A stretch of DNA of 64,000 nucleotides from a phage. The DNA is taken from assembly GCA_014816185.1 (NCBI GenBank), contig GCA_014816185.1_4095.1; one strand, written 5' to 3'. Under the pieces are notes generated by a model, which worked only from the letters and a program-made list of their open reading frames with translations, ran no database searches and had not been told where the DNA came from. Position numbers and translations under genes: made by a program. Within the stretch, counting starts at the first letter, position 1. Every line of letters begins with the position of its first letter. This document shows positions 10,695 to 53,953 of the stretch, in pieces.

Positions 10695-10765
10695 AATTCC
10701 CCTCCTTATTCATTATACTATATTTAATACAAATAAGAAAGCCAGTATCAAGTACTGGCGTAATG
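10695..10765 (-). promoter_or_regulatory. MLPF-family upstream cassette
   Basis: conserved element. Confidence 0.55.
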
Positions 10766-11908: not shown

Positions 11909-11980
11909 AATTCCCCTCCTTATTCATTATACTATATTTAATACAAATAAGAAAGCCAGTATCAAGTACTGGCATTCTTT
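11909..11980 (-). promoter_or_regulatory. MLPF-family upstream cassette
   Basis: conserved element. Confidence 0.55.
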
Positions 11981-13144: not shown

Positions 13145-13216
13145 AATTCCCTCCTTTATTCATTATACTATATTTAATACAAAAAGAAAAGCCAGTACTG
13201 AGTACTGGCTATTATA
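13145..13216 (-). promoter_or_regulatory. MLPF-family upstream cassette
   Basis: conserved element. Confidence 0.55.
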
Positions 13217-14404: not shown

Positions 14405-14475
14405 AAATTCCTCCTTTATTCATTATACTATATTTAATACAAATAAGAAAGCCAGTATCAAGTACTGGCATTAAA
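14405..14475 (-). promoter_or_regulatory. MLPF-family upstream cassette
   Basis: conserved element. Confidence 0.55.
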
Positions 14476-15624: not shown

Positions 15625-15695
15625 ATTTCCCTCCTTTATTCATTATACTATATTTAATACAAATAAGAAAGCCAGTACAGTGTACTGGCATTATA
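15625..15695 (-). promoter_or_regulatory. MLPF-family upstream cassette
   Basis: conserved element. Confidence 0.55.
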
Positions 15696-16835
15696 TTATT
15701 TCCACGGTAGAAGTGAATCAGGAACCCTTGTTGGTACAGTAGTTGAAGACATTCCAGTAAGATTGGGTACACCACATGTGTATAAATTATTATATTCGTC
15801 AACTAACATCGTATAAGAATAGCTCTTACAAAAACTACTAAGATTACTACCTTCTAATGCAGTAAGATCCATTTCAGCGAATGATGTTATATACATATCA
15901 GTTGTACCAATACCACATTGACCATTTGAATTAAGGCCACATGAAAATAACTTATTATTATTATTAATTATACAGGATGGTCCGGTAAGGTTTGTCCCAA
16001 GCTCACCCACCAACTCCACTTCTCCTTGGAATGATAAATTTGGAATTAATGTACTCATTGGGGCTACTGACCTATTTCCTGTACCTGCTTGTCCATAGTC
16101 GTTAATAGATGCAACTTTAACATTACCATCATTAAGAAATATATAAGAAGTTTCATTTGTATTGACTGCTTTAATTGCATTACTAATCGAAGTATCTTGT
16201 GTAAATGTGAGCAAGTTTTGTGTCGTCGTTCCTGATACAAACGTTCTACCTGCATACCAATATGAACCATCATTTAGTACTAATCCAGTACTATATATTG
16301 CACAACCAGCACTGATAACATTTTCTATTGTACTATAGGTGAATCGTGAAACGCTTGAAGTTGATCCATTCCCAAAAACACCACCAGTACCAGCACCACA
16401 GTAGAACCACTTTCCATTTTTTAAAAATACACGCATACACGAAGATATCACAACACTATCAATATCATCTGCACTGACACCGAAATCAGTAAAGTTCTGT
16501 GTTATATCAACCCAAACGCCGTTAGTGTTTGAAGATAGTATTGGAATAACAGTACGTCTACCAGTGTACCAAATAGTACCATCTTTCTTTATAGCAATTG
16601 TTCCTTGTACCCCACCCCAATATCGTGTAACATTTGAGTTGACAAGAGTCCATTCAGTTGAAGAGTCCAATGAACCATTACCACTTTGTCCATATGCTGA
16701 AGAACCAAACCAATATAGATTGCCATTTGTGTGTAAATAAAATTTGGCATCAGCAGAACATTGTAACCTGTTTTTAGGTAGAATCAGTTCAGGTGCGATA
16801 TTCCCGTACTTAACCATTCTTGCAAAAGGTAACAT
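15696..16835 (-). CDS. MLPF-propeller family protein 8
   Basis: start moved to MLPFARMVKYGNIAPE at 16835; GLNSNGQCGIGTTD motif. Confidence 0.6.
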   Translation of the reverse strand: MLPFARMVKYGNIAPELILPKNRLQCSADAKFYLHTNGNLYWFGSSAYGQSGNGSLDSSTEWTLVNSNVTRYWGGVQGTIAIKKDGTIWYTGRRTVIPILSSNTNGVWVDITQNFTDFGVSADDIDSVVISSCMRVFLKNGKWFYCGAGTGGVFGNGSTSSVSRFTYSTIENVISAGCAIYSTGLVLNDGSYWYAGRTFVSGTTTQNLLTFTQDTSISNAIKAVNTNETSYIFLNDGNVKVASINDYGQAGTGNRSVAPMSTLIPNLSFQGEVELVGELGTNLTGPSCIINNNNKLFSCGLNSNGQCGIGTTDMYITSFAEMDLTALEGSNLSSFCKSYSYTMLVDEYNNLYTCGVPNLTGMSSTTVPTRVPDSLLPWK

Positions 16836-16905
16836 ATTCCCTCCTTTATTTGTTATACTATATTTAATACAAATAAGAAAGCCAGTACTCTGTACTGGCA
16901 TTATG
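16836..16905 (-). promoter_or_regulatory. MLPF-family upstream cassette
   Basis: conserved element. Confidence 0.55.
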
Positions 16906-18015
16906 TTATTTTGGTAAATCAATTTTAGTAAAGACTGCAACATCCTCGATTGCACCTGGAATGGCGTAATACGATCCAGTACTATACACATCTCCATTTT
17001 TGGTTAATATCGATGTCAAACCATCACTAAAAAGAACATCCCTAATCTCACTAACTTCAACGGGTAATTGTAAATTGGTAGCACTATATATAGCACCAGT
17101 TTGAGAATTGTTTAATCCCAAACCACGGTTCGCCCCAACACCCTTCTGATATGTACTAGTAATTACCATTTGTGTAGCAGTATTTAAGGCAGGTGAATTC
17201 GTCATAAACAACGGAGAACTATTAGGCAAAGTACTTAAAGGAACTGCACGGAATGTAGTCGTACCTGAACTAAGAAAGTTTGGAGTTTGACCACATACGA
17301 AATATGATGTACCATTATAGTAATTTAATGCATTACCACCAATGGCTGCATCGATTACACCAGAACTACGCAATCCCCAAGTGTTAATTTGTGTTTGGTT
17401 CCCCGTACCATGCTGCCCACTACTATTCCATCCAGAACTATATAGCTTATTATCTAATGTAAGATACATACTATCATTCGCATTGGTCATTACTTTACGA
17501 ACGTTCGTAGCACATTGAGTTAATGTGTAAATTGATGATGAACCAATACCCAAAGAACCACGATATCCATTATCTCCTGCACCATAGAGTACTGAATTAG
17601 TGCTAAGTACAAATATTAAACCATTTGTACATACAATATTAGCAATTTCACTTACTGGTATAGCATTGGTAAACCAATTAGTTCTTTCAACTAATACAGT
17701 ACTGTAAGAAGTAGTTGTAGAAGATGAGAACCAGTACGTTTGACCTGATGTCCATATCGTATTATCATTTTTAATAATAACAAGTGTACGATCACCCACG
17801 AAAAAATTAGAAACATCTGCACTTACTAATGTCCACGAAGACACCGTGTTGGTATTACCATTTCCAGATTCACCACCTTGATTTCTACCTATGTAATATA
17901 AATCATGTGAATCAGTCAATAAGAATTGGCCTTGGGTAGAAGCACCAACTTTAATTATTTTTTTAGGACCAGGGACAATATTTCCATACATAATCATTCT
18001 TCCAAAAGGTAACAT
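16906..18015 (-). CDS. MLPF-propeller family protein 9
   Basis: start at MLPFGRMIMYGNIVP (18015); no cassette upstream, only 8 nt after stop of 18024..19226, so co-transcribed; GWNSSGQHGTGNQT motif. Confidence 0.6.
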   Translation of the reverse strand: MLPFGRMIMYGNIVPGPKKIIKVGASTQGQFLLTDSHDLYYIGRNQGGESGNGNTNTVSSWTLVSADVSNFFVGDRTLVIIKNDNTIWTSGQTYWFSSSTTTSYSTVLVERTNWFTNAIPVSEIANIVCTNGLIFVLSTNSVLYGAGDNGYRGSLGIGSSSIYTLTQCATNVRKVMTNANDSMYLTLDNKLYSSGWNSSGQHGTGNQTQINTWGLRSSGVIDAAIGGNALNYYNGTSYFVCGQTPNFLSSGTTTFRAVPLSTLPNSSPLFMTNSPALNTATQMVITSTYQKGVGANRGLGLNNSQTGAIYSATNLQLPVEVSEIRDVLFSDGLTSILTKNGDVYSTGSYYAIPGAIEDVAVFTKIDLPK

Positions 18016-18023
18016 ATTCCCTC

Positions 18024-19226
18024 CTATTGTTGCCATAACTGCGATGGCATTAATGTTAGTGTAGTAATACTATAAGTGCCATCTGGCAATCTACCACCAT
18101 TTCCATTCCAGCCACCACATGCATATAATTTATAATCTTTAGTAATTATTATGGTTCTGCTCCAATCTTTAGATGCCATAAGAACATTGTCATAACCACC
18201 ACTTATTGCACTAAGATTAAAAATATTCCAAGTTCTAACTAATGTATTAGTTCCATTACCTTCTTGACCATATGAGTTAGCACCACTACTTCTAACATAT
18301 GGTGCGTATTGTGCCATAGGTGCACCAATTGATGCATTTCCCATATTACTTGGACAAATAAAAGTACTGTACTTACTTACATCAACCGTGACCGATGTGT
18401 TCCTAATTGGTGTTAGCTGATTTACCGATGTAGTCGTACCATTACCAGCTTGTCCAGAACTGTTAGCCCCGCTATAATATACAGACCCACCAGTAGTAAA
18501 CCACCAAGTAACATCGTATGTAGTACTAATATGTTCTACATTACTAATCACGAATTTGTTCAAATATACAACAGAACTACCACCACATCCACTTTCACCA
18601 AAGTTATCCTTACCACAAAACCATGCATCTTTATTTGATTTGATATAGTGCGTTCCTTGTAATGAACATGCCATATGTGTAACTTCACCCATATTAGTCA
18701 TAACTGTGAGTGTAGGGATGGAATTTTTATTCCCAGAGCCACATTCACCATTAGTATTTCTTCCACACGCAATTACTCTACCATCGGTTAATAATATTCT
18801 AGTACTTTCACCTATATATACACTCTTGATCATATTAGCCATAACACCTATTTTATTAAATGCAACAGTAACATCAGTCCATGTTGTCAAATAACCATTA
18901 ACAGGTGTTGCATCTCCATAATCAGAAAATGCACCAACCGACCCAGTGTAGTATATTTTATTATCCAAATCAATCATCAATGAACCTTGAACACCAAGCC
19001 AAAAGGCTGCACAGTTCCTTGCAAGTACTGTAAATGACGAAACTGCTGCTGAATTCCCAAGACCAAATTGATAAAAGTTATTACTACCATAACCATATAA
19101 AGTATTAGTTGGGTTATGGAGATACATACAGTTTGTATAATGTTGTTGTAAAACATCTGAGAACTCTACAGGTTCTGGACCTGGTGCAATATTTGCGTAC
19201 TTAACCATTCTTCCAAAAGGTAACAT
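18024..19226 (-). CDS. MLPF-propeller family protein 10
   Basis: MLPFGRMVKYANIAP; GANSSGQAGNGTTT motif. Confidence 0.6.
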   Translation of the reverse strand: MLPFGRMVKYANIAPGPEPVEFSDVLQQHYTNCMYLHNPTNTLYGYGSNNFYQFGLGNSAAVSSFTVLARNCAAFWLGVQGSLMIDLDNKIYYTGSVGAFSDYGDATPVNGYLTTWTDVTVAFNKIGVMANMIKSVYIGESTRILLTDGRVIACGRNTNGECGSGNKNSIPTLTVMTNMGEVTHMACSLQGTHYIKSNKDAWFCGKDNFGESGCGGSSVVYLNKFVISNVEHISTTYDVTWWFTTGGSVYYSGANSSGQAGNGTTTSVNQLTPIRNTSVTVDVSKYSTFICPSNMGNASIGAPMAQYAPYVRSSGANSYGQEGNGTNTLVRTWNIFNLSAISGGYDNVLMASKDWSRTIIITKDYKLYACGGWNGNGGRLPDGTYSITTLTLMPSQLWQQ

Positions 19227-19297
19227 ATTTCCCTCCTTTATTCATTATACTATATTTAATACAAAAAGAAATGCCAGTATCAAGTACTGGCATAATA
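19227..19297 (-). promoter_or_regulatory. MLPF-family upstream cassette
   Basis: conserved element. Confidence 0.55.
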
Positions 19298-20476
19298 TTA
19301 TCGGTTAAATTTAAAATCTGTTATGTGTGTCCATGTATGATTTAATGGTGTACTCAATGGTGTAAAGCCAGCAGGGTCTGACCACGTTGAACCACATGCG
19401 TACATAAATTGATTGCCAGTACAATCCATTATAGCATAAGAACGTGTTGCTGTACCACATTTGAATCCAACTGCACTACTTGGGGTCGGTAATACTTCAA
19501 ATGTAGGTGCATTTGAAGTATTACCCCCATTTTTTGTTCCAGCTATGTACAGAACTCCATTAGTATCAATGATTAAGTTAGTCCAATATGCTTGTTCTCG
19601 ACCAGCATAAAAATATGTTAAATCACCGGGTACAAATGGTAACGTACCTTTATATAGTGTAGTATTAACATCCACTGGTGCTCCAGATACACCCCATGAA
19701 CTCATATAGTTTCTCCCACTTGCGTAGAATGTAGTTCCTTTACCGTAAAGTATTAATGATGCATGACTTGTTCGCATTGCATTATATTCAAACTCAGGAT
19801 CATCAGTAGCGTCCTTAAAAATCTGTGTCCATGTTGTTATATAGCCAGTAGTTGTAACACCCATTTGATAATAATAATTATCACCAGTAGCATAGAATTG
19901 TTTAGGGCCAGTTTGTACAATTGCATTCCTATTAGTTAACCAAAAATCTAATGTATTAGTCATGATCTTGGTGGGTGTGAAATTCGCCACGGTATTTCCT
20001 TTTCCGAAATAACCCTTAGCGTTATCTCCATGACCCCATAAATCACCATTAGTTGTGCGTAGGAATAATGTACCAGAATTGAATACAACTTTTTCTATAG
20101 TACTTATATCAATACCAACAGAAGTGTAATTCGTTGTAAAATCTTGAAAAGTACCCCAAAAATTAGATGAACCATTAAACATGACTTGACTACCAGTGTA
20201 CTTCACTTTATTATCTTTAGTGATAAGTAATGTCCCCCACGATGCCGCGAACATTAACTTAACATTTTCCATAACAAAGTATGGCTTACCGTATGCTGAC
20301 GCGGTAGAGTTCAAACCTAATAGTTGTCTATTATTACTACAACCCCATACTTCGCCGTTATCCAAAAGCATCAACATAGTAGGTTTACCAGATAATACAG
20401 ACAAAAAGAAATCTTTTGGTGTTGGTACACCAGGTGCAATATTCCCATAATCAAACATTCTAACAAAAGGTAACAT
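19298..20476 (-). CDS. MLPF-family protein 11
   Basis: MLPFVRMFDYGNIAP; body Trp/Tyr/Thr-rich and more divergent. Confidence 0.6.
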   Translation of the reverse strand: MLPFVRMFDYGNIAPGVPTPKDFFLSVLSGKPTMLMLLDNGEVWGCSNNRQLLGLNSTASAYGKPYFVMENVKLMFAASWGTLLITKDNKVKYTGSQVMFNGSSNFWGTFQDFTTNYTSVGIDISTIEKVVFNSGTLFLRTTNGDLWGHGDNAKGYFGKGNTVANFTPTKIMTNTLDFWLTNRNAIVQTGPKQFYATGDNYYYQMGVTTTGYITTWTQIFKDATDDPEFEYNAMRTSHASLILYGKGTTFYASGRNYMSSWGVSGAPVDVNTTLYKGTLPFVPGDLTYFYAGREQAYWTNLIIDTNGVLYIAGTKNGGNTSNAPTFEVLPTPSSAVGFKCGTATRSYAIMDCTGNQFMYACGSTWSDPAGFTPLSTPLNHTWTHITDFKFNR

Positions 20477-21017: not shown

Positions 21018-21203
21018 ATGTATAAAGAATTCTACTGTAGTAAGCTGCACAAACAATACAGAGATTCATTTCCAAATGAACCTATGGATATGAATAGTCC
21101 CTTTTATAAATTTGACTTCAGACTGGAGACACGTTATGCAATAGAACATCAATTTCCTGAAACTAAGTACTTATCTATCATGAACCTCATCTTTAAGTTC
21201 TAA
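21018..21203 (+). CDS. ~60-aa family member
   Basis: MYKEFY..; C-term YLSIMNLIFKF. Confidence 0.55.
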   Translation: MYKEFYCSKLHKQYRDSFPNEPMDMNSPFYKFDFRLETRYAIEHQFPETKYLSIMNLIFKF

Positions 21204-21214
21204 AAGAGTACTAT

Positions 21215-21427
21215 ATGAAAACTATGAACATACACCAGTACTACTTAGATATTCTCCCTAAAGATGTACAGTTCATCCTTAAACAAGAATACAGTACTTT
21301 AAAAAACCTTAAAAGAACCGCACCGAATGTATTAATCCTGCACCAAGAAAATGTAGTTGATAATATTCTACAAGGTGTACCAGGGACCGAGTACTTTAAC
21401 ATAATAAGGCTAATTACATTACCATGA
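21215..21427 (+). CDS. ~60-aa family member
   Basis: QYYLDILP..YFNIIRLITLP. Confidence 0.55.
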   Translation: MKTMNIHQYYLDILPKDVQFILKQEYSTLKNLKRTAPNVLILHQENVVDNILQGVPGTEYFNIIRLITLP

Positions 21428-21609
21428 ATCATATATTATACTATTACCAAAATCTATCCGACAGGGACAAGTACACCCACAACTCCAATGTATGGTACTA
21501 CAAACGCGGTAGTATAAGAGACAAACAACATTACTTCTGTATTGCTATAAAAGAAGCACTAACAACTAAGTACACGTACAGAGCAGTACTGAAACTTATT
21601 GATATGTAA
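21424..21609 (+). CDS. ~60-aa family member
   Basis: C-term YTYRAVLKLIDM. Confidence 0.55.
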   Translation: MNHILYYYQNLSDRDKYTHNSNVWYYKRGSIRDKQHYFCIAIKEALTTKYTYRAVLKLIDM

Positions 21610-21619
21610 AGAGAATACT

Positions 21620-21802
21620 ATGAGCATTGAATTGTACTTAAGTAAATTACAGCCTGGCGATAGATTCATCTACAATAAGTTCGAATTCAACTACAAGAAC
21701 GGGAGCAACAAATATCGTCGAGGATACCTATATACAAGCACAAGAGATGCACAAAACGAAAAGTACACATACAGAGAAGTACTTAAACTAATCTCTATTT
21801 GA
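21620..21802 (+). CDS. ~60-aa family member
   Basis: start at ATG 21620 (MSIELY); track start 21599 is TTG; C-term YTYREVLKLISI. Confidence 0.5.
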   Translation: MSIELYLSKLQPGDRFIYNKFEFNYKNGSNKYRRGYLYTSTRDAQNEKYTYREVLKLISI

Positions 21803-21810
21803 GGTAATAT

Positions 21811-21996
21811 ATGAATACATTTGAGTACTATACCAATAAACTATCTATGCCTGAAAGATCTCATCTCTATGTGTGGAGAAATGCGTATAAAAGCGGCAAT
21901 AAACTTATACAAAGAAATTCCCTTACAGTGTGTACAAATTTAATTAAAGCAGAGTACCGCACATATATTGAAGTACTCAAACTGATAGCAATATAA
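21811..21996 (+). CDS. ~60-aa family member
   Basis: MNTFEYYTNKLS..YIEVLKLIAI. Confidence 0.55.
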   Translation: MNTFEYYTNKLSMPERSHLYVWRNAYKSGNKLIQRNSLTVCTNLIKAEYRTYIEVLKLIAI

Positions 21997-22004
21997 GGTA
22001 CTCT

Positions 22005-22172
22005 ATGCAAGAATTCTATATCTATAACCTCCAGCACAAAGATAGATACAACTATAATAAATTCCAAAGGTACTACACAGTCGGGAACAAAAGAGATAAA
22101 AAACGTTATCTACTCTCGTGTACAGTAGAAGCACAAAACGAAAAGTACACGTACAGAGAAGTACTTAAACTA
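22005..22172 (+). CDS. ~60-aa family member with 1-nt deletion near 3' end
   Basis: MQEFYIYNL..; aaaacgaaagtac here vs aaaacgaaaagtac in paralog 21620..21802 shifts frame and removes the conserved YTYREVLKLISI tail. Confidence 0.35.
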
Positions 22173-22191
22173 ATCTCAATCTAAGGTAGAC

Positions 22192-22380
22192 ATGAACACT
22201 TTTGAGTACTACTTCAATAAACTAAACCACATAGAACAAAGTATGCACAACTCATTTATTCAGCACCATCAATCATCTGCACATGGAATTAAAAATATAT
22301 CGATTGAGATTATCACTACCCGTGTACTGTCATCTGAACGTTATATGTATATTGATGTACTGAAACTCATCTCTATGTAA
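22192..22380 (+). CDS. ~60-aa family member
   Basis: MNTFEYYFNKL..YIDVLKLISM. Confidence 0.55.
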   Translation: MNTFEYYFNKLNHIEQSMHNSFIQHHQSSAHGIKNISIEIITTRVLSSERYMYIDVLKLISM

Positions 22381-22388
22381 GGAATAAT

Positions 22389-22568
22389 ATGCAAGAATAC
22401 TATATAGAACACATAAGCATTAAAGACCGTTTCATGTACGACACCTTCGTGAAGTACTACAACCTGGCAACTAATAGTACTAAAAATATTAATCTCAATA
22501 GCTGCATTCATCACGCACTAACAAAAGATAATCCCTTCAGGGAAATCCTCGCTCTCGCATCTGTATAA
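22389..22568 (+). CDS. ~60-aa family member
   Basis: 59 aa MQEYYIEHIS..; below track threshold, read from sequence. Confidence 0.45.
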   Translation: MQEYYIEHISIKDRFMYDTFVKYYNLATNSTKNINLNSCIHHALTKDNPFREILALASV

Positions 22569-40218: not shown

Positions 40219-40364
40219 AAGAATTCTTATTCGAAGTAGTGTTTCAAGGTGTCGGTAGTAACCAACTGATTCGCTCAAGTGGTTACAATGTTAGCCAGGC
40301 ATGGAATAACATTAAACAAATGTACCCGAACGCCATCACCTATCGCAACCCGAAAGAAGTTTAA
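40215..40364 (+). CDS. small protein (49 aa)
   Basis: MKEFLFEVVFQGVG..; ATGA overlap. Confidence 0.35.
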   Translation: MKEFLFEVVFQGVGSNQLIRSSGYNVSQAWNNIKQMYPNAITYRNPKEV

Positions 40365-40378
40365 AAATAATTGAAAAA

Positions 40379-40465
40379 GGGATTGACTCCGGTCAGTCCC
40401 TTTGCTATTATATACGCATAGAAACAAATCAGCCCACAGGGTGCATAAATGTATCTATTATATGC
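40379..40465 (+). promoter_or_regulatory. composite element: UUCG hairpin / TTGACT-17-TATTAT promoter + conserved segment
   Basis: GGGATTGAC-TCCG-GTCAGTCCC; TTGACT 40383-40388, TATTAT 40406-40411. Confidence 0.5.
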
Positions 40466-40537
40466 TGGTGGCTAGTACTGAAAACTATTTTTAAAAAAGT
40501 ACTTGCATTGTACTTAGAATCAAGTATAATGTTTTAC

Positions 40538-40614
40538 ATCAGGACGGGGAACGAAACAAGTAACCCCGTTAAGTAGTCCAGGAGTAAGACATAAGAAAAC
40601 CTCCCCTGATAAAA
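40538..40614 (+). ncRNA. candidate small structured RNA / structured leader (copy 2)
   Basis: ~85% identical to 29066-29155; flanked by promoters (TATAAT 40525-40530 upstream; TTGACA 40619-40624 / TATAAT 40641-40646 downstream). Confidence 0.35.
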
Positions 40615-42187: not shown

Positions 42188-42442
42188 ATGATTAAGGTAC
42201 AACTATCTAAAGATAATATCTTGCGGGTACACTATAAAGCACCACAGAGAATCATCACAAAGGCCGTACAGCTTGCTAATGAGTTTATTAATGGTAACCT
42301 ATTACCAAGGAAGTTAAGCAACGGAAAACTGCGTGTAATCGATGTAGACACTAACAACAGAATAGTAATTGAGAACACAGGAAAGATAAACCTATATGAA
42401 CACCAACAATATAATAAGAAAATAAAACTAATATCACGTTGA
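42188..42442 (+). CDS. hypothetical protein
   Basis: 84-aa ORF. Confidence 0.45.
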   Translation: MIKVQLSKDNILRVHYKAPQRIITKAVQLANEFINGNLLPRKLSNGKLRVIDVDTNNRIVIENTGKINLYEHQQYNKKIKLISR

Positions 42443-42714: not shown

Positions 42715-42771
42715 TTGACAGTACTCAAATGTTTTAGTACTATATGTACATACCAACACGGGGAAAACAAA

Positions 42772-43014
42772 ATGATTACTTTAGAAAAACGTATCAAAGA
42801 AACTACATCGCTGGTGGAACTGTTAACAGTACTGAAATGCCGTACTACTCGGTTTAGTACACCGGACTTTATTAATATGGTTGATGTTAACGGTCGTTAT
42901 CGCATTGCAGTAGAACATGGAACAGCGAAAGTATTCAGTACTAAAAACACTAAGGAAGTGATTCACGCGGTTAGTGTGAAAAAAGTGGTTGCCATTGATA
43001 GTAAAGTACTGTAA
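42772..43014 (+). CDS. hypothetical protein
   Basis: start MITLEKRIKE; same upstream promoter repeat as previous gene. Confidence 0.45.
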   Translation: MITLEKRIKETTSLVELLTVLKCRTTRFSTPDFINMVDVNGRYRIAVEHGTAKVFSTKNTKEVIHAVSVKKVVAIDSKVL

Positions 43015-43045
43015 GATAGTTTCATTAACTCAAGGAGAACATGCA

Positions 43046-43630
43046 ATGCGTAATTATACTAAATTCATCCGTACCCTGTCAGAAATGGAAACCAACAAAG
43101 AGATCCTTTCAGCTTGTCGGTTAGCTGGTCTGGAGATCATCGGTGCGGGTTCTTCCCGTATTGTATTCGCTTTAAATGTTCGGTTAGTGATTAAGGTCGC
43201 CAATTGTGATGCGGGTGTAGAACAAAATGAAACTGAATGTAAGGTATGGAATTTTTTAGACTATGACCGCCCTCAATTGAAACAGTACTTTGCAAAGGTG
43301 CATATGCATTTATGCGATCCTGATAATATGTTTATCGTTATGGATCGGTTGAGTACTGCAAGTAAAGGCAGTGTGAAGCACGTTAACGCGTGCAACGAAT
43401 TAAAGTACAATATTAAACGTAATGCCATTGAACGCCAGCACCGCTTTGCTGATGCACTACAACACGTCGATGATACATTATCAACACTAACGATAAGAGA
43501 TATCAGAAAACAGAATATCGGCCAGGATCGTAATGGACTTATTAAAGTACTTGATTACGGTTTAACCCGCAATATCTGGAATCAGTACTATAAAAAGCGT
43601 GATGTGGCAGCAAGTAAAGTAACACGATAA
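43046..43630 (+). CDS. minimal eukaryotic-like protein kinase (ePK-fold) candidate
   Basis: Gly-loop IIGAGSSRIVF, beta3 Lys in LVIKV, catalytic loop IRDIRKQN (RD..N spacing as in HRDLKPxN), IKVLDYG matching the DFG region; only ~195 aa so C-lobe truncated. Confidence 0.5.
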   Translation: MRNYTKFIRTLSEMETNKEILSACRLAGLEIIGAGSSRIVFALNVRLVIKVANCDAGVEQNETECKVWNFLDYDRPQLKQYFAKVHMHLCDPDNMFIVMDRLSTASKGSVKHVNACNELKYNIKRNAIERQHRFADALQHVDDTLSTLTIRDIRKQNIGQDRNGLIKVLDYGLTRNIWNQYYKKRDVAASKVTR

Positions 43631-43644
43631 AAAAGATTAAAAAA

Positions 43645-43735
43645 GGGATTGATTTCGGTCAGTCCCTTTGCTATTATATATTCATTGAGAGATAGCTCAC
43701 TGACCCACAGGGTGCATAAATGTATCTATTATATA
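43645..43735 (+). promoter_or_regulatory. composite element: UUCG hairpin/promoter + conserved segment
   Basis: GGGATTGAT-TTCG-GTCAGTCCC; downstream ATTCATTGAGAGATAGCTCACTGACCCACAGGGTGCA. Confidence 0.5.
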
Positions 43736-43852
43736 AGTATTCAGTACTGAAAACTATTTTTAAAAAGTACTTGCATTGTACTTAGAATCAAGTATAATGT
43801 TTTATATCGAGAGGGGGGGGAACGGTTCTCCCTGGCAATAAGGAATAAAATC

Positions 43853-46379: not shown

Positions 46380-46398
46380 CAAAAAAGAATAAAAAAAA

Positions 46399-46480
46399 GG
46401 GATTGACTCCGGTCAGTCCCTTTGCTATTATATACGCATAGACAAAAACTAGCCCACAGGGTGCATAAGTGTATCCAAAA
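46399..46480 (+). promoter_or_regulatory. composite element: UUCG hairpin/promoter + conserved segment
   Basis: GGGATTGAC-TCCG-GTCAGTCCC; CCCACAGGGTGCATAAGTGTATC downstream. Confidence 0.5.
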
Positions 46481-46646
46481 TATATAGTTAATAACGGTGA
46501 GTAACTATCTGCTGGTGGATGTACTGCCAGTACTCAAGGGAACTAAAACTATTAATAAAAAGTATTGACAAAGTATATCAGTACTGCAATAATGTATCTC
46601 GTAGGGCGGCAATGGTGCGACGGTCCACAAAGTTAGGAGATTCAAA

Positions 46647-47748: not shown

Positions 47749-47997
47749 TGCGTAAAGGGATCTAGTACTGATTCAGAAAAAAGTCAAGGCGTTTTTAAAA
47801 TTATGCGTTAAAAAAATGCATAGGTAATCCCTTGACTTTTTTGAAATAAAAGGGATTGGACTATGGCAAAATGCGTAGGGGGCTAAAGGGCGGGTAACCT
47901 TAGCGACTTCGATAAAGGGGTATTACGAATAAAATGTTATTGACTTTTTATATGAATCGTATAAAATATGATCGATAATAATTTTAAGGGAGTCCCT

Positions 47998-48195
47998 ATG
48001 CGTATTTTAACTAAAGAACAGCACCACGAAAGACTTATCAATAACATGGCTATGATAATGTATAAGTCCCATGACCGTGGTATTGCCTATAAGCGTGAAT
48101 TAATTATGGCACTATTCATTGGAACTAACTTTCAGGAAAGGTATGTCAACGATTGGATTTGGTATTTAATTGAAGATATAACGAGTAAACTATGA
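47998..48195 (+). CDS. GTNYQE-family small protein (first member)
   Basis: start MRILTKEQ; motif IGTNFQERYV; C-term ITSKL. Confidence 0.55.
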   Translation: MRILTKEQHHERLINNMAMIMYKSHDRGIAYKRELIMALFIGTNFQERYVNDWIWYLIEDITSKL

Positions 48196-48392
48196 AAATG
48201 CGTATTTTAAATAAAGAAGAATATCAATCACTGTTACGTAAAAACTTCACAAAGATTTATAATACAGACACACACGTAGAACGAATGGAGTTATACCTTT
48301 TGATTACTTTGGGAACTAACTATCAGGAAAGATGGGTGATTCAATATATGGATACATTGAAAAATAAAATATTGTCCACGAGGAAACAATGA
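48192..48392 (+). CDS. GTNYQE-family small protein
   Basis: LGTNYQERWV; ATGA overlap. Confidence 0.55.
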   Translation: MKMRILNKEEYQSLLRKNFTKIYNTDTHVERMELYLLITLGTNYQERWVIQYMDTLKNKILSTRKQ

Positions 48393-48598
48393 AAACTATA
48401 ACACGAACCCAATCATACGGTCTTATCTTGAAATACATGGACTTAATGGTGGATATCAGCAAAGACCTTCCTAAAACTGAAATTGAAGTTGCAAGAGCAG
48501 AGATCCGCATGTTGGCTGTACTGAACACAAACCATCAGGAAGATTATGTTGAAGAATGGATTCGATTTTTAATTCAAGATATAAAGAGTAAATTATGA
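48389..48598 (+). CDS. GTNYQE-family small protein
   Basis: LNTNHQEDYV..IKSKL. Confidence 0.55.
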   Translation: MKTITRTQSYGLILKYMDLMVDISKDLPKTEIEVARAEIRMLAVLNTNHQEDYVEEWIRFLIQDIKSKL

Positions 48599-48810
48599 TT
48601 ATTATAGAAAACTCATATCAATATACTGAACGCATCGCTGCCAGACAACTTGAAATCCTCATAATATACGAAGAGACTTCTGATTTAAACTTAGCCGAGG
48701 TATTGGAAAATGATATACTATTGGGTGCATTCTTAGGAACAGACTATCAGAAGTATTATGAGGAAAAGTATTTGTCATCTCTTGAGAAATATATCAGGAG
48801 CAAATTATGA
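48595..48810 (+). CDS. GTNYQE-family small protein
   Basis: LGTDYQKYY..IRSKL. Confidence 0.55.
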   Translation: MIIIENSYQYTERIAARQLEILIIYEETSDLNLAEVLENDILLGAFLGTDYQKYYEEKYLSSLEKYIRSKL

Positions 48811-49019
48811 TTTTTTTAACACCAGAAGAATATAAGAAACGTTTCAATTCCGCACAGGGTGAAATCTTACTTATATACCTTTCAAATGCAGACCTTAACT
48901 TATCAAGGGTATTAGAAAAAGATTTACTTATGGGTGCATTCCTTGATACAGACTTTCAGGTGTATTATGTAGGGGAATACTTAATTGCACTTCAAAATTA
49001 TATCAGGAGTAAACTATGA
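48807..49019 (+). CDS. GTNYQE-family small protein
   Basis: close paralog of 48595. Confidence 0.55.
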   Translation: MIFLTPEEYKKRFNSAQGEILLIYLSNADLNLSRVLEKDLLMGAFLDTDFQVYYVGEYLIALQNYIRSKL

Positions 49020-49234
49020 AACATTTAAGTAACTCCGAGAAGAATAAAATTATCGTTGCTGCAATAAACAAATATTTTACACTTCCTCACACAGAAGGTT
49101 TATGTGTAAGGGAACACAGGATAAACACCACCGATATACGCATGATGGCTGTACTGGGGACGAACTTTCAGGAAGAGTATGTTGTTGCACACATAGTTGC
49201 CCTCACTGATTTAATAAGGGACAAATGCAAATGA
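49016..49234 (+). CDS. GTNYQE-family small protein
   Basis: LGTNFQEEYV. Confidence 0.55.
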   Translation: MKHLSNSEKNKIIVAAINKYFTLPHTEGLCVREHRINTTDIRMMAVLGTNFQEEYVVAHIVALTDLIRDKCK

Positions 49235-49539
49235 AACACTTAACTGATGATGAATTTGAAACTATAATTCGTAAACTAACCCCCATCACAAGGATAGTCT
49301 ACGGTGACCCCAGCCTTACATGGAACCAAATGCGAGCTAAAGTTAATGAGCTATGGTTGCTGTACTTTATGGGGACTCAATATCAAGATAAGTTTTGCAC
49401 AGAATATATCGAACAATTAACGAATGTTATACAGGATAAACTAGATGATTATTTGCTCACAAAACATGAAGATTTTATCAGGAGTGGAGTATCAGACTGC
49501 CCTCTTCTCTCTTCTAAACACCCTCCGCACGAACAATAA
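49225..49539 (+). CDS. GTNYQE-family protein with C-terminal read-through extension
   Basis: MGTQYQDKF; junction reads aaactaGATGA where the family pattern would be aaactATGA, so the stop is lost and the ORF runs 31 codons into the next gene. Confidence 0.45.
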   Translation: MQMKHLTDDEFETIIRKLTPITRIVYGDPSLTWNQMRAKVNELWLLYFMGTQYQDKFCTEYIEQLTNVIQDKLDDYLLTKHEDFIRSGVSDCPLLSSKHPPHEQ

Positions 49540-49717
49540 ACTTTATAATTCCCGTGAAGCTGATATCGTCAACGCTGATGTATATCTTAATAAATTCATA
49601 GGGACTAACTATCAAGAACTGTTCACTCTACGATATATCGCTGCATTGAGAAACGAAATATCAGATAAAACCCGTCAAGCCAGAAGAGAATGGAATAAAC
49701 AATGCGACACAGACTAA
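49445..49717 (+). CDS. GTNYQE-family small protein
   Basis: IGTNYQELF. Confidence 0.5.
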   Translation: MIICSQNMKILSGVEYQTALFSLLNTLRTNNKLYNSREADIVNADVYLNKFIGTNYQELFTLRYIAALRNEISDKTRQARREWNKQCDTD

Positions 49718-49953
49718 ATCACAAAATGTATTGTAAACTATTACAGACACTGGCACAGAAACACTATGACACTGTATCTGAAATATTACCCTATGATATC
49801 ATGCGTTTAATTCATAGTGAGGCAGAGATGCTTGTACTGATGACAGGCACTGATAAAAAAGCAATTGCCAAATCAATAGATATGTTCATCGAAGCACAAT
49901 GTCAACACATTAGAACCGAGATATGGAGACGAGAGAATGATAACACTAAATGA
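49702..49953 (+). CDS. GTNYQE-family-like small protein (divergent)
   Basis: MTGTDKKAI in place of the motif. Confidence 0.45.
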   Translation: MRHRLNHKMYCKLLQTLAQKHYDTVSEILPYDIMRLIHSEAEMLVLMTGTDKKAIAKSIDMFIEAQCQHIRTEIWRRENDNTK

Positions 49954-50152
49954 GTTTCAGTATCATTGGAGGTTACAAACTATCAAATCAAAAGTGTATA
50001 GTATTGTGTTAAACAAATCTATTGCACAAGAGGACAAATGTGTTATAATAGCTGAAATGAAGTTGGGTGCTTTCGTAGGGACAAACTATCAAAACATCTA
50101 CACTGACGTATTGTTAAGTGCCTTACGTAACAAGGTGGTATCCAAAATATGA
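49937..50152 (+). CDS. GTNYQE-family small protein
   Basis: VGTNYQNIY. Confidence 0.55.
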   Translation: MITLNEFQYHWRLQTIKSKVYSIVLNKSIAQEDKCVIIAEMKLGAFVGTNYQNIYTDVLLSALRNKVVSKI

Positions 50153-50367
50153 GAAATTTACAAGGCTTTGAATACATCAGACTCCTGAAAACATGTGGAA
50201 GCAGAAGGAGAATGATATCAAGCGATAAGAGCATCCAAGCTAACCTTAAGCACGCACTAGTAACTGAACTCTATGTAGGTGCACTCTTAGGCACAAACTA
50301 TCAACAAATGTATGTGGATCTATGGATTGACGCTCTACAGAAAGAGGTTAAAAGTAAATGCAAATGA
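50149..50367 (+). CDS. GTNYQE-family small protein
   Basis: LGTNYQQMYV. Confidence 0.55.
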   Translation: MRNLQGFEYIRLLKTCGSRRRMISSDKSIQANLKHALVTELYVGALLGTNYQQMYVDLWIDALQKEVKSKCK

Positions 50368-50576
50368 TTAATTTAAGTAAAGACGAATTTTATGTTATAC
50401 TGGCGAAAACTTATCCAGCACGTAAGGCCGTTTATGATAGTCACATTATTGAACCCTCAAAGAAGTTGATTTTAGTAAATGAGATAAAGATGCTTTCAGT
50501 CTTAGGAACAAACTATCAAGAGAATGCTGTACTGATGTTAATTGATGCCCTCCAGCGAGAGGTTAAACGTAAATGA
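50358..50576 (+). CDS. GTNYQE-family small protein
   Basis: LGTNYQENAV. Confidence 0.55.
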   Translation: MQMINLSKDEFYVILAKTYPARKAVYDSHIIEPSKKLILVNEIKMLSVLGTNYQENAVLMLIDALQREVKRK

Positions 50577-50803
50577 AAATGATTAATTTAACTTACCATG
50601 AATATCAAAAACGTTTAAATGCATCCAGAGATATAAGGATTCAAATATTCAATAACAAAAGATTGAAGCCTGATATCAGGAAAATCAAAATCATAGAAGC
50701 CGTGTTGTGCAACTTCCTAGGGACTAACTATCAGGAAGGTAAGGTAGAAAACTATCTTATAGAACTCATGAATAGTATTGAAAATAAATGTAAGGGTAAT
50801 TAA
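50573..50803 (+). CDS. GTNYQE-family small protein
   Basis: LGTNYQEGKV; 3' end duplicated at 51038-51076. Confidence 0.55.
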   Translation: MKMINLTYHEYQKRLNASRDIRIQIFNNKRLKPDIRKIKIIEAVLCNFLGTNYQEGKVENYLIELMNSIENKCKGN

Positions 50804-50804
50804 C

Positions 50805-51044
50805 ATGAAAATGATTAAATTATCTCAAGCAAAATATAAAGAACGCCTGGTAAAAATTGCACCTGGACTTAATGAAATCCATCACGGAGAAGTCATTAAA
50901 CACGGAAATAAGATGATTATGAAACTTGAGTTAAAGGTGGGTGCATTCATAGGAACAAACTATCAGGAGTATTATGTAGATGAATACATAATCGCACTTA
51001 AGAGATACATTGGAAGAAAACTATATCTACAAACTAAAGAATAG
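50805..51044 (+). CDS. GTNYQE-family small protein
   Basis: start MKMIKLSQ; IGTNYQEYYV. Confidence 0.55.
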   Translation: MKMIKLSQAKYKERLVKIAPGLNEIHHGEVIKHGNKMIMKLELKVGAFIGTNYQEYYVDEYIIALKRYIGRKLYLQTKE

Positions 51045-51073
51045 TATTGAAAATAAATGTAAGGGTAATTAAC

Positions 51074-51394
51074 ATGCAAATGATCAATTTAAGTAAAGAT
51101 GAATATACCGAGCGTATGACAAAAATTACGCACAAACGTAATACAATCTATCACAACCCAGAAATTCAACACAGTAAGAAAATGATTATGATGCGTGAGT
51201 TAAAGATGGGTGTATTCTTAGGAACAAACTATCAAGATACAGAAGTAAATCGCTTAATCGCGGAGTTGCTACTGGAAATCAGAGGTAAGCTGTACTTTCA
51301 TCAAATGACCCAACCACTGAGGTGTACTAAGAAATGTTCAACATCACATTGCAAGAAAGATTCATCCGAATCAACTATGCAATTACCAAATTAG
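51074..51394 (+). CDS. GTNYQE-family protein with C-terminal extension
   Basis: start MQMINLSK; LGTNYQDTEV; extends ~40 codons past family length into next gene. Confidence 0.45.
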   Translation: MQMINLSKDEYTERMTKITHKRNTIYHNPEIQHSKKMIMMRELKMGVFLGTNYQDTEVNRLIAELLLEIRGKLYFHQMTQPLRCTKKCSTSHCKKDSSESTMQLPN

Positions 51395-51549
51395 ATGCTA
51401 CTATAGGATTCCAAAGTCTACCATACAAAACCAGATTGTTATTAGAGTGTGAAGCTAAGTTGGGTGTACTGTTAGGGACGCAACACCAACAACGATATGT
51501 GGAAATCTGGATTGACCTTTTAACCCAAAATATATATGAGAGAATGTAA
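51334..51549 (+). CDS. GTNYQE-family small protein
   Basis: LGTQHQQRYV. Confidence 0.5.
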   Translation: MFNITLQERFIRINYAITKLDATIGFQSLPYKTRLLLECEAKLGVLLGTQHQQRYVEIWIDLLTQNIYERM

Positions 51550-51780
51550 ATGCAAAATGAAATGATATACTTAACGAATGAAGAATTTCAAGAGAAGATG
51601 TTAAAAACCAAAAACATTACTCTTAAGTTCGTTCCAAATCAATCAATATCTGAAGTATCTGCAAATGTATTGTTTCAGAAGCTACCATACGTTCTTGGAA
51701 CTGATAAACAAGAATTTATGGTTCAAAATATGATTGAACATCTTATAATGAGTATTAAGGAAAAAGTAAATGCAAAATGA
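51550..51780 (+). CDS. GTNYQE-family small protein
   Basis: LGTDKQEFMV. Confidence 0.55.
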   Translation: MQNEMIYLTNEEFQEKMLKTKNITLKFVPNQSISEVSANVLFQKLPYVLGTDKQEFMVQNMIEHLIMSIKEKVNAK

Positions 51781-52024
51781 AATGATATACTTAACCTATA
51801 ATGAATACGTCGAGAGATTAGTTCGTGCCAAGAGATATACCAATAAACGTCCAATTGACCTAAACCAAACCCCAGCAGAAAGGAGTGCAGAAGTATTATT
51901 CCAATCACTACCATATCTTCTGGGAACTGATAGACAAGAGGAATATGTTGCACGTATGATTAGATATCTTAAAATCACTATTAAGGAAAAAGTAAATGCA
52001 AATGAAATACTTAACAGACGATGA
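51770..52024 (+). CDS. GTNYQE-family small protein
   Basis: LGTDRQEEYV; paralog of 51550. Confidence 0.55.
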   Translation: MQNEMIYLTYNEYVERLVRAKRYTNKRPIDLNQTPAERSAEVLFQSLPYLLGTDRQEEYVARMIRYLKITIKEKVNANEILNRR

Positions 52025-52247
52025 GTTAAAAGAACGACTAATTAAATCAAGAAAACATACAAATCAACTTCCAAACGACACAAACAAGTCTCCAGCGGAA
52101 AGGAGTGCAGAAGTTTTATACATTCAACTCATGTACTTTCTTGGCACTGACAGACAAGAGTATTACATTGAAAGTATGCTTCGATATCTTAAATTCTCTA
52201 TAAAGGAAAAGATACATGATCAAGTATTTAAAAATCCTAACTGCTAA
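51996..52247 (+). CDS. GTNYQE-family small protein
   Basis: LGTDRQEYYI. Confidence 0.55.
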   Translation: MQMKYLTDDELKERLIKSRKHTNQLPNDTNKSPAERSAEVLYIQLMYFLGTDRQEYYIESMLRYLKFSIKEKIHDQVFKNPNC

Positions 52248-52458
52248 TGAATATCATAAGATTGTAATGAAGACTAATAGTGCTTACGCTAAAAAATCAA
52301 ACCCCAAGTACATACTGGAACACACATTTGAAGAACGTCAATTAGCTTTAGTTGAAGCAAAACTTCTTGCACTATTAGGAACAAACTATCAGGAAGAATA
52401 CAATAGAAAACTAATATACCTTTTAACTAAACATATAAGAAAAAGAAAAAATGCATGA
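52216..52458 (+). CDS. GTNYQE-family small protein
   Basis: LGTNYQEEY. Confidence 0.55.
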   Translation: MIKYLKILTANEYHKIVMKTNSAYAKKSNPKYILEHTFEERQLALVEAKLLALLGTNYQEEYNRKLIYLLTKHIRKRKNA

Positions 52459-52685
52459 AACACTTGACAGATGATGAACATGGGCTTATAGTAATGGATG
52501 TAATCAACATCGAATACAAAAAGTTGATACGCTATCGTTGTTATGAAGATAAGCAACTCGTTCTAGCAGAACAGAAGTTGTTTCGACTCTTAAACACAAA
52601 CTACCAAGCACAATACGAAGAATCGTATATGTACCTTTTGGCGAGGAAAGCAAAAAGAGATTATGAAAATTTTAAGCAAAGGTGA
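52455..52685 (+). CDS. GTNYQE-family small protein
   Basis: LNTNYQAQY. Confidence 0.55.
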   Translation: MKHLTDDEHGLIVMDVINIEYKKLIRYRCYEDKQLVLAEQKLFRLLNTNYQAQYEESYMYLLARKAKRDYENFKQR

Positions 52686-52884
52686 TTCAGTAATATTACT
52701 TATAGAGAGTTCAAGTAAATTCTTAAACATAACACTGTCTGATATAGATGAAGATGATAAAGAAGTACTGAGAGCAGATTTAAGAGTACTGTTACATATC
52801 GGAACAAACCTACAAGAAGAATATGTAGAGTGCTACATTAATGAACTTAAAGAATCAGTACTGAGAAAATGCAAATGCAAATGA
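52663..52884 (+). CDS. GTNYQE-family small protein
   Basis: IGTNLQEEYV. Confidence 0.55.
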   Translation: MKILSKGDSVILLIESSSKFLNITLSDIDEDDKEVLRADLRVLLHIGTNLQEEYVECYINELKESVLRKCKCK

Positions 52885-53108
52885 AAATCATTTCACCCAC
52901 AGAATACAACCAACTATTAAGTAGTTTAATTCTAAAGCTGTTTATAACAAAAAGCATGAAATTACCAGATGATGAAATAAGTATTCTAGTAAGTGAAATC
53001 TATGTTCAAGCTACACTAGGGACTAACTATCAAGAATGCAATATTAATGATTACATCAATGAACTAAAAAGGTTTATCCAATGCAAATGCGAATCATTAC
53101 CGAAGTAG
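52869..53108 (+). CDS. GTNYQE-family small protein
   Basis: LGTNYQECN. Confidence 0.55.
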   Translation: MQMQMKIISPTEYNQLLSSLILKLFITKSMKLPDDEISILVSEIYVQATLGTNYQECNINDYINELKRFIQCKCESLPK

Positions 53109-53323
53109 AATACCTAACAATCATAAATGGACTGTTTTCGAAGTTATTTGCCATTAACACATCAAAACTTCCAGATTCTGATAAAATTATTAAGTTAAAT
53201 GAAATCTACGTTCAAGCTACTCTAGGAACAAACTATCAAGAAGCCAATGTGTATAATTACATTAATACACTCAAAAGGGTAATACAATTAAAATGCACAG
53301 ACAGCACACACACAAACCCCTAG
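53081..53323 (+). CDS. GTNYQE-family small protein
   Basis: LGTNYQEANV; close paralog of 52869. Confidence 0.55.
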   Translation: MQMRIITEVEYLTIINGLFSKLFAINTSKLPDSDKIIKLNEIYVQATLGTNYQEANVYNYINTLKRVIQLKCTDSTHTNP

Positions 53324-53523
53324 GAACAGCAGAATACATTGAACTAATGGCTGCAAACTTCTCATCCTTTAAGAAACTGATGCAAGAATCAAAGAATGAT
53401 TTAGAATATCACATCAAAAGTTCAGATTTAAGATTGCTACTCACTCTAGGAACAGATTCCCAAGAGCGATTTGTCAATGAGCATATTAGAGCACTTTTAA
53501 ATGGCATCAGGAATAAACTATGA
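53293..53523 (+). CDS. GTNYQE-family small protein
   Basis: LGTDSQERFV. Confidence 0.5.
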   Translation: MHRQHTHKPLGTAEYIELMAANFSSFKKLMQESKNDLEYHIKSSDLRLLLTLGTDSQERFVNEHIRALLNGIRNKL

Positions 53524-53735
53524 AGGAAATATCAAATCAAGAGTACTTGGCACTATTCAGGAAGAATAATCACAAATATATGGCACTTGATTCAAGAACT
53601 GATATAAGTGAACTTGAAAAAAATCTTTTGCGTTCAGAGATGATAGTACTGACACTCTTAGGAACACAGCATCAAGAGAGAACTGTTAATTCACACATAG
53701 GGATTCTTATGCAGATAGTTCAGGAAAAGATATGA
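53520..53735 (+). CDS. GTNYQE-family small protein
   Basis: LGTQHQERTV. Confidence 0.55.
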   Translation: MKEISNQEYLALFRKNNHKYMALDSRTDISELEKNLLRSEMIVLTLLGTQHQERTVNSHIGILMQIVQEKI

Positions 53736-53953
53736 GAATCATAACACAACAAGATATTCTTAAGTTCACAAGGGTTCATGCATCTGAATTTGATGCTATA
53801 TTATCAAAAAGTTACAACAACCCTTATACACAAGATGTACATTACAGTGAATTATGGATGTATATACTTTTAGGTACAAATAAGCAAGAGCAAGCCGTAC
53901 AGAAGTATTTGACAGCTTTACGTGATGCTACTGCTAATGGAGTATGTGTTTAA
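53732..53953 (+). CDS. GTNYQE-family small protein
   Basis: LGTNKQEQAV. Confidence 0.55.
   Translation: MRIITQQDILKFTRVHASEFDAILSKSYNNPYTQDVHYSELWMYILLGTNKQEQAVQKYLTALRDATANGVCV

Follow-up and report, generated by a model that had tools for sequence, protein, structure and literature searches.

Phage kinases have recently gained importance. Phage T7 encodes one, gp0.7 (T7K), that phosphorylates most of the proteome of the infected cell and disables defence systems, among them Retron-Eco9 and DarTG1 (PMC13645617). The truncated T7K is hyper-promiscuous, acts against host defence, and is highly active alone. It has DPV in place of the DFG motif, and it has a regulatory (inhibitory) autophosphorylation site, S216, at D+3 (PMC13645617). 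Bartolec et al. also reported T7K homologues in the jumbo phages G17 and Munch; these homologues lack the C-terminal shut-off domain (PMC13645617). Two other minimal kinases, the effectors OspG and SteC, depend on a cofactor or on an activating phosphorylation. SteC retains the activation segment and the substrate-binding helix αF, and it needs pS379 (PMC13395416).

Here we describe a different truncated kinase-like protein, which is encoded at positions 43046–43630 (+ strand) of a 64,000-nt stretch of phage DNA (contig GCA_014816185.1_4095.1 of GenBank assembly GCA_014816185.1; we will call the whole stretch the window). By analogy with T7 gp0.7, we lean towards the view that this protein would be a catalytically competent, radically shortened protein kinase with an early host-modifying or anti-defence role.

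The kinase label itself is not new. In GenBank, the orthologues are named "serine/threonine-protein kinase PRP4" (fEgEco12 g044), "protein kinase domain-containing protein" (ph0011), "PknA" (Turkey3), or "putative protein kinase" (Munch, Muenster, and SE_PL), and UniProt names L7TKF0 of phage PBECO4 "Protein kinase domain-containing protein". The Sharanji genome paper lists the orthologue WNN14351.1 as "another protein kinase, function unknown" (PMC11895373). Since the identification had already been made, the worth of our analysis lies in characterisation, not discovery. We define the truncation structurally; we give a signature for the family, its size, its restriction to phages, and its absence from Pfam; and we describe relatives with several kinase domains in tandem, the conserved position in the terminal repeat, and the clear distinction from the T7K-like gene that these phages also carry.

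The gene and its phage family

The kinase-like open reading frame (ORF) runs from an ATG at 43046 to a TAA at 43628–43630, and the opposite strand has many stop codons. An earlier note on this DNA, which was made from the sequence alone, had pointed out this ORF as an early gene for a minimal, eukaryotic-like kinase with a 195-aa product. The kinase-like ORF is real. Its 195 codons include the stop codon, however, so the product has 194 amino acids. A start at TTG 42989 would give 213 amino acids; we discarded it because the placement of an AGGAG sequence and the lengths of the orthologues (all 191–198 aa) favour ATG 43046.

43046–43630, + strand: coding sequence for the 194-aa truncated protein-kinase-like protein (PHROG 4301), orthologue of Sharanji gp063/WNN14351.1, fEgEco12 g044, and PBECO4 L7TKF0
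43033–43037, + strand: Shine-Dalgarno sequence AGGAG, 8 nt before the ATG, as read from the sequence

The window's DNA is 93–97% identical to that of the Asteriusvirus jumbo coliphages, including PBECO4, 121Q, G17, Sharanji, fEgEco12, and vB_Ec-M-J. Using tblastn, we found full-length homologues of the kinase in 54 phage records. These are 90–99.5% identical in Asteriusviruses of Escherichia and Salmonella, and 36–39% identical in RaK2, K64-1, Muenster, Munch, 7t3, and the Erwinia phage Kaldavass.

The protein belongs to PHROG 4301 (E = 5.7e-41, 141.5 bits; residues 3–188 align to positions 13–185 of the 225-position profile). The other PHROGs matched at E ≤ 1 were 34815, 28332, 20935, 13574, and 36424. 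Word-indexed searches found 15 and then 183 relatives; an exhaustive HMMER search found 1,884 cluster representatives at E ≤ 1e-3, with 177 of them at E ≤ 1e-10. Clustered at 50% identity, the family comprises about 1,900 clusters, most of which come from contigs of large or jumbo phages. No relative among the matches listed has a precomputed Pfam domain, and the family has no Pfam model.

Some relatives have several copies of the domain in one polypeptide: four in P0024 (923 aa), three in P0025 (693 aa), and two in P0028 (468 aa). Every copy has its own GxGSSR, lysine, QNxxE, aspartate, and (L/V)D(Y/S/T)G(L/F); in P0024 and P0025 the last of these is DYG. A unit ends about 12 residues past its DYG, and the next one begins about 12–25 residues past it, which shows that the short unit forms a complete domain by itself. 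We also considered that the kinase might be split, with a small adjacent gene providing the rest of the C-lobe. We ruled this out because the neighbouring genes are unrelated between distant homologues and because the tandem copies show that the unit is autonomous.

Distant members of the family (23–28% identity) are found on two jumbo-phage contigs, of 357,674 bp (from a metagenome) and 299,776 bp. Their neighbours are replication genes (RNR, DnaB, RecA, gp32, and PolA) or tail and baseplate genes. Given these other gene contexts, placement in the terminal repeat is specific to the RaK2/Asteriusvirus lineage.

Catalytic residues and truncated fold

Sequence searches with the protein by itself would leave some room for a chance resemblance of motifs, the fold of this small phage protein being unrelated to that of kinases. 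Pkinase (PF00069) scored 17.2 bits (E = 0.0036), short of the gathering threshold of 31.7 bits, and the match covered only positions 68–152 of 263. Just 2 of 114 family members matched PF00069 at E ≤ 0.01. PHROG 4301 is labelled "unknown function", a scan of NCBIfam gave a negligible match only, and PADLOC reported only a generic kinase-domain likeness to PD-T4-6. When the single sequence was compared to sequences in the PDB (E ≤ 10), however, 58 of the 60 matches listed were eukaryotic-type protein kinases and the other two were bacterial Ser/Thr kinases. In these alignments, RDIRKQN pairs with HRDIKPSN and DYG pairs with DFG. A profile of the close family matched MKK4 (E = 1.3e-4) and MKK7 (4.6e-4), with MKK4, MKK7, MST, and PKA ranging from 1.3e-4 to 1e-3. 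The profile alignment spans the whole domain, from the Gly-rich loop to beyond DFG (residues 28–181 against kinase residues 20–170).

To describe conservation we use an alignment of 114 homologues (19–91% identity), and counts below are out of these unless stated otherwise. The catalytic elements are:

43136–43168, + strand: Gly-rich loop IIGAGSSRIVF, residues 31–41; G35 and R38 invariant, G33 in 111/114, S36 in 109/114
43184–43198, + strand: strand β3, LVIKV, residues 47–51; K50 invariant (114/114)
43214–43237, + strand: start of helix αC, G57..Q60-N61..E64; G57, Q60, and N61 invariant, E64 in 113/114
43493–43522, + strand: catalytic loop IRDIRKQNIG, residues 150–159; D152 invariant, G159 in 113/114, R151 variable
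43553–43567, + strand: DYGLT, the equivalent of DFG, residues 170–174; D170 and G172 invariant, Y171 in 109/114, T174 is T or S in 97/114
43568–43627, + strand: short C-terminal helix (residues 175–182; Y182 in 107/114) and a basic tail, which make up the entire portion past DFG

Nine residues are invariant in all 114 sequences: G35, R38, K50, G57, Q60, N61, D152, D170, and G172. The four motifs that the earlier note had named (the Gly-rich loop, LVIKV, IRDIRKQN, and IKVLDYG) lie where it placed them, at residues 31–41, 47–51, 150–157, and 166–172. In the Gly-rich loop, which reads G33-A-G35-S-S-R, the first two glycines of GxGxxG are conserved (111/114 and 114/114), and S/R takes the place of the third. 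The glutamate of αC (E64, in QNETE) had not been mentioned in that note. K50 lies in a strand (residues 47–52) and E64 in a helix (55–74) of the structural model described below, the arrangement of the β3 lysine and αC glutamate in the protein-kinase-like (PKL) superfamily, and E64 would be expected to form a salt bridge with K50. The sequence GxxQNxxE around the start of αC is a signature that is specific to this family.

In the catalytic loop, the earlier note had read RD..N. Only the aspartate and the asparagine are meaningful, because the arginine is not conserved even among close homologues. Position 151 is A/G/I/R/Q/T in 13 close homologues (R in just one of them) and G in 83/114, and orthologues with 87–91% identity have IID at this site. 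Position 150 is I/V/L/A/Y, so the HRD motif of Hanks-type kinases is not present. N157 has the canonical D-x4-N spacing; it is N in 11 and Q in 2 members of the close clade, and H/S/N/Q, mostly H, in the wider family. D152 and D170, which are 18 residues apart and both invariant, align with HRDxKxxN and DFG of MKK4 and MKK7, as expected for the catalytic residues of the PKL superfamily. The signature of the family is LGxGSSRx(V/A)(F/Y) ... V(L/I)KxA ... GxxQNxxE ... GD(L/I/V)x4-5(H/N/S/Q)(W/I/L)G ... LDYG(F/L)T ... Y. The spacing in the Asteriusvirus clade is the canonical D-x4-N.

An AlphaFold2 (AF2) model that was built with a 13-sequence alignment had pLDDT under 50 in its C-terminal half; the model that we use rests on the 114 homologues and has pLDDT 93.4 and pTM 0.90. 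Its secondary structure has a kinase-like order up to DFG+12: two N-terminal helices, β1–β3, αC (55–74), β4/β5, αD (109–120), and αE (130–145), followed by the catalytic loop, β7, β8, DYG, one short helix (175–182), and the end of the protein at residue 194. This is a bilobal PKL fold, with αC in a five-stranded β N-lobe, a hinge, αD and αE, the catalytic loop, and β7–β8.

What is missing is the rest of the C-lobe, with all of its regulatory and substrate-docking elements. The AF2 model has no activation segment, no APE, no αF with its aspartate, and no αG–αI with their arginine (subdomains VIII–XI). The earlier note's reading that the substrate-binding region of the C-lobe is absent holds up, since just one short helix follows DYG. 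But it had put the end of the protein about 35 residues after DYG, and the actual distance is 22 residues.

Foldseek, which the earlier note had suggested as a check, did return kinase folds. Matches in the PDB were mostly to kinase-like folds (Lpg2603, OSR1, APH(2''), CDK2, MEK1, and RIO2), with SAICAR synthetases interspersed, at E of about 1e-4 to 1e-3 and TMq of 0.35–0.45. In a structure search of BFVD, the orthologues ranked best, including H6X4G3 of RaK2 (3e-18) and L7TKF0 of PBECO4. They were followed by many small uncharacterised phage proteins and by T7-like "protein kinases", with TMq of about 0.55, above any cellular kinase.

The motif set exceeds chance resemblance, given the family-profile matches and the invariant catalytic residues. 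With the hundreds of kinase-fold matches of the AF2 model as well, a chance resemblance is effectively refuted, and we give it hardly any weight. As far as computation reaches, the interpretation as a kinase is supported.

The truncation does raise the question of whether the protein could be active by itself. It might instead be a pseudokinase or an ATP-binding scaffold, or it might need a host or phage partner or an activating phosphorylation; OspG, for example, works only with E2~ubiquitin, and SteC only with pS379. The truncation removes αF and the other core parts of the C-lobe that hold the catalytic and regulatory spines of canonical kinases in place, and the characterised minimal effector kinases are dependent on cofactors or phosphorylation (PMC13395416). 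Also, the Thr/Ser at D+4 (97/114) is close to the regulatory site of T7K (S216, at D+3). However, the catalytic residues are all invariant across a very deep family, which is unusual for pseudokinases. No adjacent partner gene is conserved: the neighbours are wholly different between distant homologues. Furthermore, T7K, with the same truncated layout, is highly active without a partner (PMC13645617). The PHROG 4301 family is also non-RD, lacking a conserved arginine before the catalytic aspartate. Non-RD kinases are usually independent of activation-loop phosphorylation. So we consider inactivity of the isolated protein to be quite improbable.

Comparison with T7K and other kinases

The phage protein resembles T7K in several ways. 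Both are phage-encoded in an early region with host-type promoters (early expression of the window's gene is our inference). Both have kinase domains of about 200–240 aa that end about 20–30 residues past the aspartate equivalent to that of DFG, without an activation segment or αF–αI. The Gly-rich loop, the VIK lysine, D-x4-N, and the Mg-binding aspartate align in register, and some of the better-scoring structures in BFVD are T7-like kinases. In contrast to T7K, the window's protein has DYG instead of DPV or DP, and the GSSR and GxxQNxxE signatures are PHROG 4301's own. And unlike T7K of Autographiviridae, it stops at residue 194 and has no C-terminal DNA-binding shut-off domain.

The jumbo-phage homologues of T7K that were previously reported are of another type, represented by Sharanji gp144 (WNN14432.1), which has 223 aa, belongs to PHROG 15752/2828, and has an ITDP motif. 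In Sharanji (OR545507.1), the gp144 gene is at 66182–66856 (21183–21857, − strand, of our locus L004), about 46 kb from gp063. We estimate that the corresponding position is about 4 kb beyond the window's start, and we found no match to T7K within the window. Asteriusviruses thus carry two unrelated truncated kinases, and the one from PHROG 4301 is the uncharacterised one.

Minimal kinases that act inside another organism's cell are also known from SteC, OspG, and NleH, which likewise have kinase domains of about 170–220 aa with a depleted C-lobe. The N-lobe of SteC was the only match in the PDB for the wide family profile (E = 0.0056). It aligns over β1–β3 (33 columns, 84% probability), with GSGSYGTVY...VIKVPINEQG against GxGSSRxVF...VLKIAxNxxG. 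After comparison with the Salmonella steC locus, we discarded membership in the SteC type, as the similarity is confined to those 33 N-lobe columns. The Hanks-type kinases (MKK4/MKK7, PKA, and PknB; PF00069/PF07714) have subdomains VIII–XI, which are absent here. Here, neither the histidine nor the arginine of HRD is conserved, the Pfam score is below threshold, and there are two extra N-terminal helices.

Could the protein be an active phosphotransferase of the kinase fold that acts on something other than protein, such as a small molecule, a nucleotide or signalling molecule, a sugar, or RNA? Aminoglycoside kinases, kinases of the Kdo/WaaP type, and the archaeal tRNA kinase Ark1 would be precedents. 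The lysine at D+2 is not conserved, the asparagine position is mostly histidine in the wider family, and distant homologues adjoin nucleotide-metabolism and replication genes on the 358-kb contig. However, the sequence matches are to protein Ser/Thr/Tyr kinases and not to the APH or choline-kinase families, and both the Gly-rich loop and the K-E pair match those of protein kinases. Small-molecule kinases normally have an extra C-terminal helical subdomain, while only about 22 residues follow DFG here. APH(2''), for instance, has a large antibiotic-binding helical subdomain at its C-terminus and an HxDxxxxN motif; the window's protein has neither and has no sequence-profile match to it. Bud32, RIO1/RIO2, and Ark1 have no relation to it at the level of sequence and keep helices past the DFG equivalent; they act in defined complexes or on RNA, and the structural ranking does not set them apart from ordinary kinases. 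Also, the closest named viral structural neighbours are T7-type protein kinases. We consider a non-protein substrate unlikely.

We therefore return to the proposal that this is a protein kinase. It would have a complete ATP-binding N-lobe (the Gly-rich loop, K50, and E64 of αC) and a C-lobe in which αD, αE, the catalytic loop with D152...N157, the DYG whose D170 binds Mg, and a single short helix are all that is left. Because the protein lacks an activation loop, a P+1 pocket, and αF–αI, and its family is non-RD, the active site would be open and unregulated, so that the enzyme might be constitutively active with little built-in sequence specificity. The gene would be transcribed by the RNA polymerase of E. 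coli early in infection, from the phage's direct terminal repeat (DTR) and behind host-type σ70 promoters. The kinase would then phosphorylate host proteins, and possibly phage proteins, on Ser/Thr and possibly Tyr; this would promote takeover of the cell or blunt its defences, in the manner of T7 gp0.7. The phage's second, T7K-like kinase would work in parallel with it. We speculate that the conserved Thr/Ser at D+4 (97/114), near the inhibitory autophosphorylation site of T7K, might be a self-limiting switch. We infer the enzymatic activity, the protein substrates, the timing, and the biological role.

Several points weigh against our proposal. First, the link to T7K appears to be statistically weak. 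T7K and Sharanji gp144 each match both PHROG 2828 and PHROG 15752, but neither PHROG was matched by the window's kinase (at E ≤ 1). Alignments by hhalign to single T7K or gp144 sequences were not significant. When the family profile was aligned to a profile of 80 T7K-family sequences, 137 columns aligned with E = 1.2e-4, a probability of 54.7%, and motifs in register, in a comparison without a canonical-kinase control. So we discarded membership in the T7K family. Because the motif differs (DYG instead of DPV), the shut-off domain is absent, and the family's HMMs are not matched, we treat T7K as the closest functional analogue instead. Second, the lysine at D+2, which is typical of Ser/Thr kinases, is variable here (R/N/S/H/T). 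Third, constitutive activity is not guaranteed, given that minimal effector kinases such as OspG and SteC work only with a cofactor or after an activating phosphorylation. Fourth, the gene has no strong promoter of its own. Fifth, a depletion of Ser/Thr/Tyr in early proteins, which in T7 is the mark of a promiscuous kinase, is not clear here: the Ser/Thr/Tyr content of the proteins encoded in the DTR is 17.0%, versus 18.3% and 23.2% for the flanks, and the second kinase and the arrays of paralogues are confounding factors in this comparison. Finally, our literature search turned up no experiment on the product of this gene or on any member of PHROG 4301.

Terminal repeat, early expression, and significance

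In vB_Ec-M-J, the orthologue lies at 16690–17274 of an annotated DTR of 21,525 bp, and it also lies inside the annotated terminal repeats of Muenster and fENko-Kae01. The corresponding repeat in the window, and the elements around the kinase gene, are:

25657–47900, + strand: DTR, approximate, by homology to the DTR of vB_Ec-M-J; bounds are ± several hundred bp because of indels
42715–42743, + strand: σ70-like promoter TTGACA-17-TACTAT, ahead of an 80-aa gene; a consensus match only
42989–43017, + strand: weak promoter-like TTGCCA-17-TAAGAT (9/12), directly before the kinase gene; may be due to chance
43642–43669, + strand: hairpin with a 12-bp stem, 12 nt past the stop codon, resembling a terminator for the unit; an intergenic module of about 170 nt, present three times, starts with it

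The window has 12 perfect promoters (TTGACA-N16/17-TATAAT), with 0.13 expected by chance. All are on the + strand, between 29156 and 46123, and all are inside the DTR. In the related phage CBB and RaK2-like phages, RpoD-type promoters are reported to be concentrated in the early region and the terminal repeat (PMC5259590). The location in the DTR and the dense, one-strand cluster of σ70 promoters make early transcription by the host RNA polymerase likely. This gives indirect support to the earlier note's placement of the kinase among the early genes. Our search of the literature found no Asteriusvirus transcriptome. The promoter at 42715 probably also drives the kinase gene, as a two-gene unit with the 80-aa gene upstream of it.

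The module of about 170 nt is non-coding, and its three copies are 2.8–3.3 kb apart on the + strand (40360–40560, 43626–43800, and 46380–46600). It begins with the 12-bp-stem hairpin (AAAGGGATTGAYTYCGGTCAGTCCCTTT), the stem of which contains the −35-like TTGAYT, and GCTATTATAT comes after the hairpin. Next are a conserved block (CCCACAGGGTGCATAAATGTATC), a stretch that is rich in AGTACT, and the promoter-like TTGCAT..TATAAT. The module had no match in Rfam, and scans of the whole window for Rfam families and tRNAs were empty. It resembles a combined terminator and promoter or a regulatory cassette, and is possibly a small RNA.

Eight of the 12 perfect promoters share a motif in the spacer (TAGTACTG) immediately before TATAAT, and in a ninth AGTACT is shifted upstream by one base. 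AGTACT, the palindrome recognised by ScaI, recurs across the intergenic regions. The shared motif, or AGTACT, may be the binding site of a regulator.

Two genes upstream of the kinase is another early gene (42188–42442, + strand), whose 84-aa product matches the Pfam toxin family ParE_like (E = 6e-11, 42.6 bits versus a threshold of 24.4). The window also has several arrays of paralogues. At 47968–53953 (+ strand), there are 21 tandem paralogues of about 70–100 aa, and the stop and start codons of many of them overlap; this array starts at the inferred inner boundary of the DTR. At 7032–20476 (− strand), there are ten head-to-tail paralogues, nine of about 375–430 aa and one fragment of about 106 aa. 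The window's minus-strand genes are concentrated there, and one Sharanji orthologue of this array is annotated as an RCC1-repeat protein. Six tandem paralogues of about 60 aa are at 21424–22568 (+ strand), and several further sets of two or three paralogous small genes are found at 20.8–25.4 kb.

Asteriusviruses and RaK2-like jumbo phages, which include several candidates for phage therapy, thus have a second, unrelated, uncharacterised mini-kinase in their terminal repeat. More broadly, we tentatively suggest, though we think it doubtful as a whole, that a very large, phage-restricted clade may use the smallest self-sufficient catalytic unit known for a protein kinase, of about 190 aa and with its end 12–25 residues past DFG; that its members, like T7 gp0.7, may be constitutive, promiscuous enzymes for takeover or anti-defence; and that each Asteriusvirus may have two unrelated mini-kinases, with this one placed for the earliest expression. 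If the window's protein turns out to be inactive, or to act on a non-protein substrate, then it would stand for a functionally new branch of this fold. If it is an active protein kinase, then it would set how little of the kinase fold catalysis requires, and the strategy of a truncated, unregulated kinase would reach a far larger and more diverse family of phages than the T7K clade. It would also be a candidate anti-defence or host-takeover factor, which would be relevant to the host range of these phages.

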